From assembly GCA_025830695.1 (NCBI GenBank), contig GCA_025830695.1_4111.2: a DNA stretch of 64,000 nucleotides, one strand, 5' to 3'. Source of the stretch: a phage. A program made the translations under genes and the position numbers. The notes under the pieces are model-generated. The model was given only the letters and a program-made list of their open reading frames with translations, had not been told where the DNA came from and made no database searches. This document shows, piece by piece, positions 32,480 through 64,000 of this stretch; position 1 is the first letter of the stretch, and each line of letters opens with the position of its first letter.

Positions 32480-32722
32480 ATGAAAGTACTGACAGAACTA
32501 GAAATGTATCATAGATTTAATAAGTACTATCATTTACTTAAGCCTATACAGAGGATTAAATGTCCATTTGAAGAGAAACAGGTTTTAATCTATGAGCACA
32601 AGTTCTTTGTATCATTAGGTACAGATCAACAAGAGTACTATTTGACGTTGTACTTGATTACATTAATAGATTTAATTCACTATAAAACCAAACAAGCTAA
32701 TAAAGAGAAATATGAAAACTAA
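32480..32722 (+). CDS. family B small paralog (last of main array)
   Basis: track ORF trimmed to MKVLTELEMY; LGTDQQEYY. Confidence 0.55.
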   Translation: MKVLTELEMYHRFNKYYHLLKPIQRIKCPFEEKQVLIYEHKFFVSLGTDQQEYYLTLYLITLIDLIHYKTKQANKEKYEN

Positions 32723-33056
32723 TATACAACTCAAGGTATATAAATCATTTGAACATACATATATCAAAAGTAGTCTATGTAGAGATGTAATGGATTACAA
32801 GGGTAAACCATTCACAATTACCTATGATTCTTATGTTAGTGATTTATATATATCATTTGTTAATTACGAAAATAAAATATACAAGCACGTTGATATTAAA
32901 GATTTAAGTACTTTATCACCAGAGGAATACTTTCAGGAATCATTAGTATGGGATTTAGAGTTTCCTATGCCATTAGTACATAAGATGATAGTACTAATGA
33001 AAGAATCTAAACAGGAGCCTAATGGTGATTATGAAGAACACATCGTTGAGTATTAA
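32712..33056 (+). CDS. family C paralog (E-E-x-Y/F-F-Q-x-S-L/T-V-x-D motif family)
   Basis: LSTLSPEEYFQESLVWD. Confidence 0.6.
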   Translation: MKTNIQLKVYKSFEHTYIKSSLCRDVMDYKGKPFTITYDSYVSDLYISFVNYENKIYKHVDIKDLSTLSPEEYFQESLVWDLEFPMPLVHKMIVLMKESKQEPNGDYEEHIVEY

Positions 33057-33426
33057 GAGTACTGATAATATTAAGAGTTATACAAGCTCAAGTACTGTGA
33101 CAATCGAAGTAAATTCTATTAATGCTGGTAATGCATTAGATAAGTTCTTTATTGCTCAAGGGTACAGGAAAGATATTCATCAATATTGTTCAGTATATGG
33201 GGAGTACAATAGTACTGAAGATATAATTTATTGGTCAACACATCAAGATTATATAACTAAAATTGGCGTTCCAGATGTTAGTACTTTATCTGAAGAAGAA
33301 TACTTTCAGTACAGCTTAGTACATGATTTACCTATACCTTTAGGGTTAATTAAGGGTATGCAGGAAGAGGTTCATAAGCTTAAATCCATGAGTAAAGGTA
33401 CTTTCATTAGAACAGTGCAATACTAG
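33022..33426 (+). CDS. family C paralog (start uncertain)
   Basis: VSTLSEEEYFQYSLVHD. Confidence 0.55.
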   Translation: MVIMKNTSLSIKSTDNIKSYTSSSTVTIEVNSINAGNALDKFFIAQGYRKDIHQYCSVYGEYNSTEDIIYWSTHQDYITKIGVPDVSTLSEEEYFQYSLVHDLPIPLGLIKGMQEEVHKLKSMSKGTFIRTVQY

Positions 33427-33427
33427 C

Positions 33428-33456
33428 TTGACAGTACTTTTCATTACTGATATAGT
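33428..33456 (+). promoter_or_regulatory. internal promoter in family C array
   Basis: TTGACA 33428-33433, 17 bp, TATAGT 33451-33456. Confidence 0.5.
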
Positions 33457-33485
33457 ACACTAACGTTAATCATAGGGTAAAAATT

Positions 33486-33731
33486 ATGTTAAATTTTTTA
33501 AATTTCCTTATCGTCTTGTGTATTGTTCTTGGGATTGCACCATTTGTATTGTATTTCATGGATTCAGATGAAATGCAGAAGATGAATTGCACAAGGACAG
33601 GACAGAGTAGAGTAGAGACGATTCTTATGCCTGTTACGGTTATTGTTAACAACATGCCCATTACAAACATGGTCCCTACCCTAACGACAACGTACCAGTA
33701 CTCTTGTGCTGACGGAGAGAGGTGGAGATGA
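33486..33731 (+). CDS. small membrane protein (hydrophobic N-terminus), hypothetical
   Basis: MLNFLNFLIVLCIVLGIAPFVLYF; downstream of promoter 33428. Confidence 0.45.
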   Translation: MLNFLNFLIVLCIVLGIAPFVLYFMDSDEMQKMNCTRTGQSRVETILMPVTVIVNNMPITNMVPTLTTTYQYSCADGERWR

Positions 33732-34048
33732 AATTTAATATAGCAAAAACATCGAGTATATGTATTTTTGGTTATGCTGATGAGTTAGGTGATATTGACA
33801 TTCTTTTGTACAAAAAGGATGGTGTTATGCATTTCAAGTACCAGGATGAAGAGGCAGACAATTATCCTTTACCTAATTTAGTACAAATGCAGGAAGATGA
33901 ATTATTCCAGTACAGCTTAGTATACGACATTGATATTTGCACGATGCCAGTACTAATTAGTATTCAAAAAGTGATGCTCGATATGTATGATAAGCTAATA
34001 CAAGGTACATCAGGGAGAATCATTGAAATCGATATACAAGACAATTAA
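33722..34048 (+). CDS. family C paralog
   Basis: MQEDELFQYSLVYD. Confidence 0.6.
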   Translation: MEMKFNIAKTSSICIFGYADELGDIDILLYKKDGVMHFKYQDEEADNYPLPNLVQMQEDELFQYSLVYDIDICTMPVLISIQKVMLDMYDKLIQGTSGRIIEIDIQDN

Positions 34049-34241
34049 TCAAGAATGGAAGACCCAAAAGTACAGGGAATTCAACAGGAATTTTACAAAA
34101 GATGCATTGAATTTAAAAACAACAGAGTTTGATATGTTTATTTTTCTTGGAACACGTTCACAAGAACAATTTGTTCATTATTATATAAATTCGTTGCGAA
34201 CGGAGATAGTATGCAAAACACAGGGTATTATAAAAAGGTAA
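34023..34241 (+). CDS. family B paralog interleaved in family C array
   Basis: FLGTRSQEQFV. Confidence 0.55.
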   Translation: MKSIYKTINQEWKTQKYREFNRNFTKDALNLKTTEFDMFIFLGTRSQEQFVHYYINSLRTEIVCKTQGIIKR

Positions 34242-34477
34242 ACCAATATTTGTACGCTACAAAGTACAGGGATTTTTGTTTAAAGGGTGGTGATGAAGAT
34301 TTTTCTTTGCGATTATCAGAATTTAATCTGTTATTTTATCTTGGTACAAAAGAACAAGAAGAAATGGCACAGAAATTTATCAAGCACCTTTTACAAAAAA
34401 TTAATATGCAAATTTTGATGCTTAAGTTACAGAATGAGATAAATGAATATGAATCCAGAAATAGTTCAGGATCTTAA
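34211..34477 (+). CDS. family B paralog interleaved in family C array
   Basis: YLGTKEQEEMA. Confidence 0.55.
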   Translation: MQNTGYYKKVNQYLYATKYRDFCLKGGDEDFSLRLSEFNLLFYLGTKEQEEMAQKFIKHLLQKINMQILMLKLQNEINEYESRNSSGS

Positions 34478-34835
34478 AAAAGTAATATTTCTTTTGAATA
34501 CCAGAAGTGAATTGTATACAGAGTTAAAAGAGATTAATGCATTTTATCAGAATTTTGTAATCCAAGAGATCAGTGATTTAATTACAGATGCATTATTTGA
34601 ATTATCGGAGAAATACAAAGGTTCAGAGTTCAGTGTTAAGAATGTTATTCGTCCAAGTGCAAGGAAAATTATATTATCACATTTTACATTTGACAATAAA
34701 GATTTATTCAGTCATAATCCAAGTACAGCTTTATATTTTATTCCTGATTCAGACAAAAATCATCCTATTCATTACGGATGGATTTTGTCATATATAGTAC
34801 AAGGAAAGGAGTATCCTATTAAATGGAAAGATTAG
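34443..34835 (+). CDS. hypothetical protein (130 aa), no family motif
   Basis: ORF track. Confidence 0.5.
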   Translation: MNMNPEIVQDLKKVIFLLNTRSELYTELKEINAFYQNFVIQEISDLITDALFELSEKYKGSEFSVKNVIRPSARKIILSHFTFDNKDLFSHNPSTALYFIPDSDKNHPIHYGWILSYIVQGKEYPIKWKD

Positions 34836-34983
34836 GGCGATTAGATTATTACACAATTAATACAAATTATTTGTTGCGTAATATAAAATCCGATTACAAA
34901 ATATGGATAAAGAACAGAGATAGCATGTGTTATGAATTTTATTTAGATTATGCTATCAAACGATTTTTAAGAGAAGAACATTA

Positions 34984-62573: not shown

Positions 62574-62589
62574 ATCTGGAGGATTTGGT

Positions 62590-62883
62590 ATGGATACTAA
62601 ATTCAAAATTATTTTTAAAACTAAGCCGTATATTCCACATACAGCAGAACGTTTTATACCACATGGTGCTGAGGAAATTATTCACCAAGATGGTACTAAG
62701 TTATACCTTGTTCCTTGTTCTTATGAACGTGCAGTAGAAATGTTACTAATGAATGCTAGACTATGCAAAAACAAGTACATTAGTTACCTATACAATGAAC
62801 ATATTTTAGATTTCAATGATGAAAATATGTTCATTCTAGCAATTGAGGATTTTGATAACTGGTACAATATTATTAAAATCTAA
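62590..62883 (+). CDS. hypothetical protein (97 aa)
   Basis: ORF track; SD GGAGG. Confidence 0.55.
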   Translation: MDTKFKIIFKTKPYIPHTAERFIPHGAEEIIHQDGTKLYLVPCSYERAVEMLLMNARLCKNKYISYLYNEHILDFNDENMFILAIEDFDNWYNIIKI

Positions 62884-62891
62884 TGAAAATA

Positions 62892-62939
62892 ATGTGAACA
62901 TATTAGATTCTTGTGATATAATGTTCACATCTTTTTTTT
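62892..62939 (+). terminator. rho-independent terminator (10-bp perfect stem)
   Basis: ATGTGAACAT...ATGTTCACAT then TTTTTTTT. Confidence 0.6.
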
Positions 62940-62955
62940 GATAACGGAGATATAG

Positions 62956-63342
62956 ATGAATACAAGTTCAATCCTAAAAGCAATTGGTGGTGTTTTACTC
63001 ATTGAAGTAAAAGGTGAGCCAAAGCTATGCTGTTTAGAAGATATGAAGAATACAAAACACTTCAGTACTGGTCAGATTTTTAATGCCATTCGTATTCTAA
63101 ATGACAAATCCATTGCTGATTATGGTAAAGTTTGGCCTGTATATCAAAATGCTGATGGTGATATCAGTACTGATTGGAAAACAATTGAGGCGGTACGACA
63201 AAGTTGTGAGAGTGATTGGGACTTCATTGTTGAAGTTTGTGATCAACTACAAGAAGATGTTCCAGAAATTGTCGAACGAAAAGAAGTCCTAGCACGACTT
63301 GAAAAATTCCGTCACGGAACACTACAGTATGACACAATCTAA
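62956..63342 (+). CDS. hypothetical protein (128 aa)
   Basis: ORF track; SD GGAGA. Confidence 0.55.
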   Translation: MNTSSILKAIGGVLLIEVKGEPKLCCLEDMKNTKHFSTGQIFNAIRILNDKSIADYGKVWPVYQNADGDISTDWKTIEAVRQSCESDWDFIVEVCDQLQEDVPEIVERKEVLARLEKFRHGTLQYDTI

Positions 63343-63391
63343 TCTGCTTATTAAAAATATCTAATTAACATTATATAAAAGGAATTTAAAA

Positions 63392-63697
63392 ATGGAAGAC
63401 AATGGAATGAAATTTGATATGTTTGAAGGTGTACCAGAGTTCGATTTCAACAAACTTGAAGAAGGTGAGGAATCAGAACTAGTCAGTGTTACACTTAAAG
63501 CAGATTCTAAGAAGAAATATTCATCAGCAGTACGTTCACGTTCACAAGAAGAATACGAAACATTTATTGAAAGTATTCATTATGAAACATTCCATCATGC
63601 AGATGGAACTCCATATGAAGTACGTGTAACAGTACTGAAGCCTGAAGTAAATCCAATGGAAAATCTACGTCCTGTTTACTGCTGGGCAAGTCACTAA
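63392..63697 (+). CDS. hypothetical protein (101 aa)
   Basis: ORF track; SD AAGGAA. Confidence 0.55.
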   Translation: MEDNGMKFDMFEGVPEFDFNKLEEGEESELVSVTLKADSKKKYSSAVRSRSQEEYETFIESIHYETFHHADGTPYEVRVTVLKPEVNPMENLRPVYCWASH

Positions 63698-63705
63698 TAA
63701 ACCAA

Positions 63706-63737
63706 AGGACGGGATTTGTTATCTCGTCCTTTTTTTG
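63706..63737 (+). terminator. rho-independent terminator
   Basis: AGGACGGGAT...ATCTCGTCCT then TTTTTTT. Confidence 0.65.
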
Positions 63738-63748
63738 TCTGGAGATGT

Positions 63749-64000
63749 ATGAAACTTTATCTAATCGTTGACTACAATAAGGATTATGCTGGTAACTTCA
63801 CCGAAGATTCGGATGGATATTGCACATCGACTAATGTCAATGTACGTAGCAGTAGTGCTCATGAACATGAATCTTGTAAAAATCTAAAAGATTTTATCGC
63901 ATACCGAGCATTTGAAAAGAACTTCTGCCGCAGTAGATATTCGAAGTTTGAGTACCCGTTAATTGATGTTCCTGATGATTTAATGTTCCAGTTAATGCTG
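63749..64000 (+). CDS. family C-like protein, partial (continues beyond window end)
   Basis: ATG 63749; contains DVPDDLMFQLML. Confidence 0.45.
   Translation, partial: MKLYLIVDYNKDYAGNFTEDSDGYCTSTNVNVRSSSAHEHESCKNLKDFIAYRAFEKNFCRSRYSKFEYPLIDVPDDLMFQLML

Follow-up and report, generated by a model that had tools for sequence, protein, structure and literature searches.

We analyzed a 64,000-nucleotide stretch of phage DNA (hereafter the window; GenBank assembly GCA_025830695.1, contig GCA_025830695.1_4111.2) and found that a part of it of about 28 kb, positions 32712-61045, is dominated by a single protein family. Of the approximately 68 head-to-tail genes in this array, 51 encode paralogs that we refer to as family C, a family that stands out by its size and by having one near-invariant motif. 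The reading we favor, to which we give about even chances, is that family C is a set of binders or inhibitors that share one scaffold, work inside the cell and are aimed at host or competitor proteins. Repeated local tandem duplication and old divergence would have built the family, and purifying selection would now keep each copy; the members would be small (100-210 amino acids), mostly acidic, non-structural proteins confined to Rak2-like jumbo phages. By its sequence the window belongs to an Asteriusvirus jumbo coliphage of the PBECO4/121Q/phAPEC6 group: positions 42000-50000 share 96-99% identity with over 20 Escherichia jumbo phages of this genus, and the near-identical set includes BF17, CRJP21 and phAPEC6, each at 98%, as well as G17, Sharanji, PBECO4 and slurp01.

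Membership was defined with a hidden Markov model (HMM) iterated from 5 obvious members at a threshold of E<1e-3, with 138 minus-strand open reading frames (ORFs) as decoys. The model converged on 39 plus-strand ORFs, all within 32712-61045, and matched 0 of the 138 decoys. Inspection of the translations identified a clear F-Q in the same sequence context in 45 ORFs, six of which have weak full-length HMM scores, and a further six members with a degenerate motif (FT, KF, FN, LQ, MQ, FT). The resulting 51 members bear out an earlier description of this DNA made from the letters alone (the first-pass annotation), which had proposed about 50 paralogs with a short conserved core. However, that annotation ran the array on to position 64000 and took almost every gene to be a member. 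The array ends at 61045, five unrelated ORFs fill 61088-64000, and members account for about 75% of the genes, with four 70-residue genes bearing an LGTxxQE motif and about 13 others interspersed.

The consensus of the 45 clear members is [ST]-x-L-[ST]-E-E-x-x-F-Q-x-S-[LT]-[VI]-x-[DN]. F and Q are invariant in all 45; position -4 is E or D in 40 and position -3 is E in 29, and on the other side 33 members have S at +3, 38 have L or T at +4 and 42 have V, I or L at +5. A strict pattern, [ED][EDA]xxFQx[SN][LTC][VIL], is found in 25 of the 51 members and nowhere else in the window, other frames included; in shuffled proteins it averages 0.002 occurrences. The invariant residues are encoded by a mixture of synonymous codons (TTT 24 and TTC 21 for F, CAG 24 and CAA 21 for Q, both AGY and TCN for S), which shows that conservation acts on the protein. 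The mixed codons and the absence of the strict motif from other frames rule out a by-product of a repeated DNA element, and the first-pass annotation was right to treat the family as protein-coding.

To judge by sequence, the paralogs are of old origin, with 55% identity in the closest pair and 20-35% over partial alignments for most. The best paralog lies within two genes for one third of the members, compared with 8% (maximum 25%) in permutations. This proximity argues for local tandem duplication. The ratio of non-synonymous to synonymous substitution rates (dN/dS, or omega) against the orthologs in vB_Ec-M-J has a median of 0.25 for 37 family C genes, the same as for 77 other ORFs of the window. 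Orthologs of all 51 members exist in phAPEC6 at a mean identity of 97.8%, and the pooled omega is 0.28 (196 synonymous and 238 non-synonymous differences). No ortholog pair in either comparison reaches an omega of 1, the highest value being 0.50. With ortholog omega at 0.25-0.28, each copy appears to be individually conserved under purifying selection and looks individually useful. The first-pass annotation had likened the array to an arsenal under diversifying selection; in the dN/dS sense this did not hold up, as the ortholog medians are 0.25-0.28 with none above 1, and gene-wide positive selection is rejected for the gene-level comparisons made. The diversity of the family stems, as its sequences indicate, from ancient duplications that then diverged, together with the gain and loss of genes. 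For approximately 5 of 41 window members no ortholog exists in vB_Ec-M-J, a phage with about 6 members of its own, and the gene at 42088-42459 is missing in PBECO4, UB and JP4 (coverage there begins at query base 458).

These data also bear on the view that the array is functionless or selfish filler, with duplicates accumulating since an enlarged capsid tolerates extra DNA, as has been suggested generally for jumbo-phage arrays (Hua et al. 2017, PMC5646251). A copy number that differs between genera is in keeping with this view. However, every comparison gives a dN/dS of 0.25-0.28, none of the 51 ORFs is disrupted in either the window phage or phAPEC6, orthologs are retained in vB_Ec-M-J at 40-96% identity, and the syntenic position is kept in three genera. 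We consider filler highly improbable and reject it on dN/dS.

The distribution of the family was examined by searching an 85-position core profile against 1.84 billion cluster representatives (E<=1e-3). This yielded 111 proteins, two of them spurious, eukaryote-like tandem repeats. The others are 65-219 residues long and carry the same motif, many being only 25-35% identical to any window member. All named relatives from protein searches belong to Asteriusvirus phages or to E. coli assemblies that contain contigs of about 350 kb; a word-indexed protein search returned close Asteriusvirus relatives only, and in cultured phages tblastn gave few matches or none, whether the query was the family consensus or either of two metagenomic members (P0042 and P0063). 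By HMM, the first 50 kb of vB_Ec-M-J holds at least 37 members, and Klebsiella phage RaK2 (Alcyoneusvirus) holds at least 29 in a syntenic array, with no minus-strand matches in either. Mimasvirus XbC2, which was reached through an RnlA anchor search dominated by T4-like phages, has a smaller syntenic block that, as in RaK2, lies just upstream of dam, cytidylyltransferase, rnlA and pseT. Two genes of that block are significant by HMM and three more were recognized by eye, with the variant EExxFQx[LM]T[LV], for a total of about 5-10 members. Since syntenic arrays occur in Asteriusvirus, RaK2 and XbC2, the family is older than the split of these genera and has grown in them to different degrees. 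The best reading of these searches is that family C is specific to Rak2-like jumbo phages.

Family C proteins are acidic, with a median isoelectric point (pI) of 4.9 and a median net charge of -9; the pI is below 6 in 38 of 45 members, and the comparison ORFs at 6000-32000 have a median pI of 8.0. Two independent AlphaFold models were made, one of a long form (45050-45502, with 34 paralogs as alignment) and one of a short form (48614-48976, 49 sequences). The long-form model has an N-terminal helix, a poorly defined segment, 4-5 strands, short helices over EEYYFQN, and then a long helix, one strand and a last helix; its motif region has a predicted local distance difference test score (pLDDT) of 95-97. 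The short-form model has five antiparallel strands, a helix at residues 64-73 (EDELFQESLV), a helix at 82-98 and a closing strand. Both share the order sheet, motif helix, long helix, strand, and across the two the motif region has a pLDDT of 92-97. All members may thus be variants of one predicted alpha+beta scaffold, in which an antiparallel beta-meander sheet precedes a short helix and a long one, with a closing strand after them, and to which the long forms would add an N-terminal helix. The motif would form the N-cap and first turns of the short helix and serve as a structural keystone. In the models, [ST]-x-x-E would act as a helix capping box whose acidic residues stabilize the first helical turn, and F together with [LT][VI] would provide a buried hydrophobic face packing on the sheet. 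The sheet, loops and termini could then vary freely and so give specificity.

The predicted helix also bears on a resemblance of the motif to the cleavage site of the tobacco etch virus (TEV) NIa protease, E-x-x-Y-x-Q followed by S or G, as in EEGYFQGS at 46118-46567, which would make it a processing signal for one Gln-specific protease. P6 is E or D in 40 of 45 members, P1 is Q in 45 of 45 and P3 is Y in 15 of 45. However, P1' is mostly not S or G (E 9, Y 9, L 7, Q 6, N 5 and M 3 of 45), the site lies within a confidently predicted helix of a folded domain (pLDDT above 90), and no 3C/NIa-like protease was found in the window. T4-type phage head-maturation proteases cleave after Glu. A processing signal is hardly credible, and the TEV-like site is rejected on P1' composition and predicted helicity.

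The place of the array in the genome gives an indication of when these proteins may act. The depositors of the vB_Ec-M-J record annotated direct terminal repeats (DTR) at 1-21525, and the DTR of Sharanji is 20.7 kb long (PMC11895373). Since the vB_Ec-M-J repeat maps by BLAST onto window positions 6769-26274, the window can be laid out as the unique right genome end, a DTR homolog, an array of a second family (family B, the LGTxxQE genes), the family C array and unrelated ORFs (Table 1). Family C thus sits directly downstream of a DTR homolog of about 20 kb, in which ten perfect sigma-70 consensus promoters (TTGACA-16/17-TATAAT, plus strand) occur, roughly one per small gene. Within the array the genes are packed head-to-tail with ATGA and TAATG overlaps, as the first-pass annotation had described: 53 of 67 junctions overlap, 16 by four bases (13 of them ATGA), there are 5 TAATG junctions, and only 7 gaps exceed 40 nucleotides. 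These gaps contain the promoter-like sites that had been listed, of which those at 33428, 37410, 49842 and 53717 match the consensus at 10-12 of 12 positions with a TG-extended -10 box and that at 56999 is weaker. The claim of one clear terminator needs correction, as there are several terminator-like hairpins (37372, 53684, 56989, 61673 and 63704).

The phAPEC6 orthologs of family C are gp404c-gp466c, and the virion proteome of that phage (62 proteins) contains nothing between gp347 and gp549 (PMC7247149, Table 1). Because these orthologs are missing from it, family C appears to be non-structural, and a role as virion component is ruled out. In the distant relative PA5oct, DTR genes form the early class and infection requires host RNA polymerase (PMC7318152); in CBB, a region beside the terminal repeat that is rich in RpoD promoters is suspected to hold early host-takeover genes (PMC5259590). 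Given these precedents and an array that follows a promoter-rich DTR, it is a reasonable inference that family C is expressed early or delayed-early. With the array directly downstream of the DTR and behind sigma-70-type promoters, transcription of a few long operons by host RNA polymerase early in infection seems most likely. Position after the DTR, sigma-70-type promoters, absence from the virion and acidity would all fit an early role in host interaction. The proteins would then act in the infected cell, each aimed at a different target of the host or of a competing element, in host takeover or anti-defense. The particular roles that have been proposed (anti-defense, host takeover and exclusion) are guesses.

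Several observations weigh against a panel of binders on a common scaffold. Profile-profile comparison (hhalign) joins short and long forms over 19 motif columns only (probability 91%), in agreement with the first-pass statement that members share just a short core, and homology of their flanks would follow from similar predicted topology. The early timing would likewise follow only from position and consensus promoters; promoter-like sites are not enriched across the array (117 compared with 126 expected in shuffled sequence), and their location in rare gaps is the sole feature that is suggestive. There is no significant structural similarity to any known inhibitor or anti-defense protein. 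Finally, the absolute invariance of F and Q exceeds usual structural demand and hints at a shared functional contact instead.

This last point leads to a different explanation, in which the EExxFQxS[LT]V helix docks one common partner (a host or phage protease, a chaperone, RNA polymerase or another hub) and the variable remainder selects clients, much as viral families of F-box, BTB or ankyrin proteins link many targets to a single machine. F is conserved in 209 of 209 and Q in 209 of 210 sequences of the HMM-selected set (window, RaK2 and database representatives) even though the proteins are otherwise 15-25% identical, but the HMM selects for motif-bearing sequences and these counts are biased accordingly. 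The alignment of short and long forms in the motif alone is consistent with docking, as is pooled omega against the vB_Ec-M-J orthologs, which is 0.30 upstream of the motif, 0.16 within it (the lowest of the three regions) and 0.22 downstream. The conserved polar and acidic residues (E, E, Q, S, D) would suit an interface; however, the motif is predicted as a helix within a compact fold with a pLDDT above 90, and helix capping would explain the acidic residues. Degenerate members (FM, FT, MQ, FN) persist under purifying selection, and no candidate partner was identified. On balance we place a shared hub on the unlikely side. A more specific form, in which the FQ helix is a portable docking module and about 50 adaptors each recognize a different host or defense protein and deliver it to a shared effector (a host AAA+ protease, for example, or an enzyme encoded by the phage), strikes us as distinctly unlikely; such a programmable-targeting array would be for bacterial viruses what the expanded F-box, BTB and ankyrin families are for viruses of eukaryotes. 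Very improbable, in our estimation, is self-assembly, in which the paralogs would hetero-oligomerize via the conserved helix like acidic trimers of the p32/Mam33 type and form a scaffold for replication or genome organization; no MAM33 domain was matched in Pfam searches of family C members.

Pfam (10 members, then all 34 long and 15 short sequences) gave no family matched by more than one member and none at cut-off; the same was true of NCBIfam and PADLOC at threshold, and the family profile found nothing among PDB sequences at E<=10. Membership in a known family is rejected on these searches. The first-pass annotation had not recognized the family either, and no known family with a housekeeping role emerged. 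Individual members do match PHROGs (E 1e-41 to 1e-142), all annotated as "unknown function"; the matched PHROGs are 9317, 12674, 13866, 19795, 34636, 30243, 35972, 36945 and others. The paralogs are split over many families, and PHROGs has no record of the superfamily link via the motif. A Foldseek search of predicted viral structures (BFVD) returned uncharacterized proteins only. All named matches at E<=1e-2 come from 121Q-, RaK2- or SP27-type phages, and matches from GAP32, Yersinia fHe-Yen9-04 and Serratia BF are limited to E 0.07-1.7. DNA-mimic inhibitors of the Ocr, ArdA and Arn type are strongly negatively charged, as is family C (pI 4.9, charge -9), but neither phosphate-like surface carboxylates nor likeness to a known mimic was found. 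Kinship with family B (70 amino acids, LGTxxQE) is rejected (hhalign probability 0.2%).

Some sequences inside the array do not belong to the family. The largest non-coding gap, of about 400 nucleotides (41146-41553), has TTGACA at 41370 and no tRNA or Rfam match. A 137-residue non-family gene at 58780-59193 (MKLYHASTVKIDNFYIPYGGLHMGGKHSALEAALRK...) has no Pfam match, and phAPEC6 has a well-conserved copy of it (gp408c). Directly behind the promoter-like site at 33428, an 81-residue ORF (33486-33731) with a hydrophobic N-terminal segment (LNFLIVLCIVLGIAPFVLYF) probably encodes a small membrane protein. Four copies of family B lie among the family C genes (34023-34477 and 47078-47465); family B has a near-invariant LGTxxQE...L motif, and its array begins right where the DTR homolog ends.

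The DTR homolog itself (6769-26274) contains about 50 small genes, most with their own promoter. Promoter-like sites (102 compared with 72 expected) and terminator-like sites (22 compared with 12 expected) are both enriched, and the arrangement resembles a module of the immediate-early, host-takeover type. A terminator-promoter cassette occurs in three copies (15833-15870, 19530-19567 and 24792-24829) and consists of a terminator-like hairpin with a 12-bp stem (AAAGGGATTGACTCCGGTCAGTCCCTTT) that has a TTGACT -35 box in the stem, followed by a TATTAT -10 box; a degenerate form lies at 56989-57028, between two family C operons. Between the window and vB_Ec-M-J, shared DTR genes have a median dN of 0.05 and dS of 0.21, compared with 0.17 and 0.61 for family C orthologs. 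The higher values in the array may reflect mosaic ancestry of this pair and not a faster rate, and we do not build upon them. Across the genus the DTR is more mosaic in gene content than the array, as no record covers 80% or more of window 1-25000, which suggests that the two regions have had different recombination histories. In the right genome end, a 406-residue ORF on the minus strand (988-2208) lies in a region labeled [quoted passage not shown] in related records, and the phAPEC6 proteins with a chromosome or DNA condensation label (gp003-gp010, gp549 and gp551) are virion components. GC skew changes sign near position 6000, and no tRNA or Rfam element was found in the window.

Table 1. 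Layout of the window, members of family C, and promoter-like and terminator-like sites (aa, amino acids; pTM, predicted template modeling score).
Position	Strand	Feature	Basis
1-6768		unique right genome end	
6769-26274		DTR homolog	
26342-32722		family B array, ~31 genes of 70-90 aa, LGTxxQE motif	
32712-61045		family C array	
61088-64000		five unrelated ORFs	
3913..4584	+	diverged outlier far from array, 223 aa, LSEEELFMYSTVID, invariant Q replaced by M; upstream of DTR homolog	HMM E 0.0053; sequence
32712..33056	+	member, 114 aa, short form, PEEYFQESLVWD	HMM E 6.8e-17
33022..33426	+	member, 134 aa, EEEYFQYSLVHD	HMM E 6.2e-20
33722..34048	+	member, 108 aa, EDELFQYSLVYD	HMM E 3.4e-14
35184..35732	+	member, 182 aa, EAEVFQKSLITK	HMM E 1.6e-23
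35722..36033	+	member, 103 aa, DEELFQQQLVID	HMM E 3.6e-12
36005..36571	+	member, 188 aa, EEEFFQGSMLVP	HMM E 8.6e-23
36878..37384	+	member, 168 aa, DEWWFQQNLVHD	HMM E 3.4e-18
37437..37979	+	member, 180 aa, EDEYFQYSTVHR	HMM E 1.1e-13
37976..38515	+	member, 179 aa, EEEYFQMQCIHS	HMM E 5e-21
38508..39131	+	member, 207 aa, DAFMFQLSLVHD	motif in context; full-length HMM only E 0.1
39336..39851	+	member, 171 aa, EESYFQQSLIYA	HMM E 2.9e-22
39848..40192	+	member, 114 aa, EAARFQYETAYD	motif; HMM E 0.062; vB_Ec-M-J ortholog E 7.5e-11 with core HMM
40131..40754	+	member, 207 aa, DESLFQYSTMYD	HMM E 3.8e-22
41370..41930	+	member, DAALFQAALVFD; start probably ATG 41553 (126 aa), not TTG 41370	HMM E 3.9e-19; upstream gap sequence
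42088..42459	+	member, 123 aa, EEEFFQESTVWN; not in PBECO4, UB, JP4	HMM E 4.8e-14
42459..42815	+	member, 118 aa, TAELFQESLVFD	HMM E 1.2e-18
42812..43171	+	member, 119 aa, DGELFQAALVFD	HMM E 4.1e-17
43181..43672	+	member, 163 aa, EEYYFQQSTVYD	HMM E 4.1e-30
43674..44144	+	member, 156 aa, EEYYFQQNTIYE	HMM E 1.1e-22
44141..44584	+	member, 147 aa, EEYYFQQSLIFN	HMM E 2.4e-25
44584..45072	+	member, 162 aa, EEYYFQNTTLYN; with 43181 the closest paralog pair (55% identity)	HMM E 7.5e-31
45050..45502	+	member, 150 aa, EEYYFQNSTVYD; modeled long form	HMM E 9.8e-30; AlphaFold pLDDT 76.9, pTM 0.73
45499..45813	+	member, 104 aa, ESFIFQESLVWD	HMM E 4.2e-9
46118..46567	+	member, 149 aa, EEGYFQGSTVYE	HMM E 5.5e-22
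46564..47100	+	member, 178 aa, DEQCFQLSCTDP	HMM E 7.5e-19
47455..48015	+	member, 186 aa, EENIFQNSVLHD	HMM E 3.2e-20
48006..48608	+	tentative member, 200 aa, degenerate motif DEDAMFTNDLTME	by eye and alignment only
48614..48976	+	member, 120 aa, EDELFQESLVWD; modeled short form	HMM E 1.4e-13; AlphaFold pLDDT 79.8, pTM 0.73
48966..49301	+	member, 111 aa, EGELFQESLVFN	HMM E 1.5e-12
49261..49845	+	member, 194 aa (start uncertain), QEYYFQLSLLFP	HMM E 3.8e-23
49905..50381	+	member, 158 aa, EEEFFQYSTVYP	HMM E 2e-30
50378..50872	+	member, 164 aa, EEMYFQESCIHD	HMM E 1.4e-22
50838..51200	+	member, 120 aa, EEELFQENTIST	HMM E 9e-17
51184..51597	+	member, 137 aa, PDELFQYSLVLP	HMM E 2.2e-16
51585..52088	+	member, 167 aa, EESYFQNSLIYT	HMM E 3.2e-25
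52072..52614	+	tentative member, 180 aa, degenerate motif DMERIKFSLSDN	by eye and alignment only; best paralog 53119, E 8e-5
52611..53174	+	member, 187 aa, ESAMFQLSLIHN	HMM E 5.4e-18
53119..53685	+	member, 188 aa, DEVLFQLSTICD	HMM E 1.4e-19
53761..54339	+	tentative member, 192 aa, degenerate motif NVLMFNANLLYD	by eye; best paralog 51585, E 2e-3
54336..54920	+	member, 194 aa, DAFIFQKSLLDN	motif in context; vB_Ec-M-J ortholog E 1.3e-3 with core HMM
54907..55488	+	member, 193 aa, EEELFQMSTVIP	HMM E 6.9e-18
55485..55913	+	tentative member, 142 aa, degenerate motif DSLALQYQVLYN	by eye only
55910..56419	+	member, 169 aa, EEIEFQNNTLSP	motif; HMM E 0.078
56403..56984	+	member, 193 aa, EENYFQLSTIHE	HMM E 1.5e-19
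57046..57597	+	member, 183 aa, EEQHFQLSTLHD	HMM E 1.5e-12
57594..58196	+	tentative member, 200 aa, degenerate motif QAALMQLSTSEP	by eye and alignment
58186..58770	+	member, 194 aa, EERLFQELCVSN	motif; HMM E 0.45
59193..59729	+	member, 178 aa, EELLFQYSLILT	HMM E 1.1e-13
59723..60196	+	tentative member, 157 aa, degenerate motif EATFFTQSTMVK	by eye only
60144..60557	+	member, 137 aa, DIDFFQYECLGV	motif; HMM E 1.0
60548..61045	+	final array member, 165 aa, SGELFQMSTLYS	HMM E 1.7e-13
33428..33456	+	sigma-70-type promoter-like site, TTGACA-17-TATAGT, TG-extended, in 59-nucleotide gap	consensus match only
37372..37393	+	terminator-like hairpin and T-run, directly ahead of 37410 promoter-like site	
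37410..37438	+	promoter-like site, TTGACA-17-TATCAT, TG-extended, in 52-nucleotide gap	
49842..49871	+	promoter-like site, TTGACA-18-TATAAT, 12/12 consensus, TG-extended, in 59-nucleotide gap	
53684..53703	+	terminator-like hairpin AAAGACCCGTATGGGTCTTT and T-run	
53717..53745	+	promoter-like site, TTTACA-17-TATACT, TG-extended	
56989..57028	+	combined terminator and weak promoter module; hairpin loop and 3' arm carry TTGACT, 17 nucleotides, TACATT (site 56999)	
61673..61693	+	terminator-like hairpin ~630 nucleotides past last member; non-family ORF 61088-61561 between	
63704		terminator-like hairpin	

Rak2-like jumbo phages give about 7% of a genome of about 350 kb, and about 9% of their genes, to family C. 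The motif, the HMM, the two models, the genome position and the selection profile turn some 50 "hypothetical proteins" per genome into one tractable problem, that of one predicted scaffold with many natural variants, each apparently under purifying selection. If the members are anti-defense or takeover effectors, they would be among the largest single-family effector sets of any phage and a library for finding host targets; if the FQ helix docks, it would point to a new hub in infected cells. There is also practical value, as these phages are proposed as therapy against pathogenic E. coli and Klebsiella and the family makes up about a tenth of their genes.

Arrays of this kind have been touched on before. 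Tandem arrays in jumbo phages 121Q and G were mentioned in passing (Hua et al. 2017, PMC5646251), and nearly 10% of RaK2 proteins were reported to be paralogues (PMC3622015). 121Q (Asteriusvirus) and RaK2 (Alcyoneusvirus) represent the two genera with large family C arrays, and the tandem duplication is of the same kind, but neither paper gives a family definition, motif, structure, selection analysis or function, and the 121Q array that was meant may be family B instead. Recent Asteriusvirus genome papers do not mention family C, and full-text searches turned up no functional work on it.

Among better-known phages, the SPO1 terminal-redundancy module, the T5 pre-early genes and the immediate-early small ORFs of T4 are early host-takeover modules. 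Family C resembles them in lying at or near the terminal redundancy, in its sigma-70-type promoters and in encoding small proteins without database relatives. However, those modules consist of unrelated genes, usually with a promoter each, an arrangement that the DTR homolog of the window fits, whereas family C consists of paralogs of a single family, organized in long operons.

A second comparison is with the multigene families that large DNA viruses of eukaryotes have at their genome ends, such as MGF110, MGF360 and MGF505 of African swine fever virus and the terminal host-range and Bcl-2-like families of poxviruses. They too comprise dozens of tandem, diverged paralogs beside the terminal repeat of a large, linear genome of double-stranded DNA, are non-structural, keep a common scaffold at low identity and vary in copy number between related viruses. 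Family C likewise consists of tandem diverged paralogs adjoining a terminal repeat, with variation in copy number and content. The likeness is one of functional analogy and not homology. There is no sequence or confident structural kinship, the host of family C is a bacterium, and those families have nothing equivalent to its near-invariant FQ helix motif. As a protein family, family C is undescribed, but its kind is familiar: a multigene family that is virus-specific and lies next to the terminal repeat.

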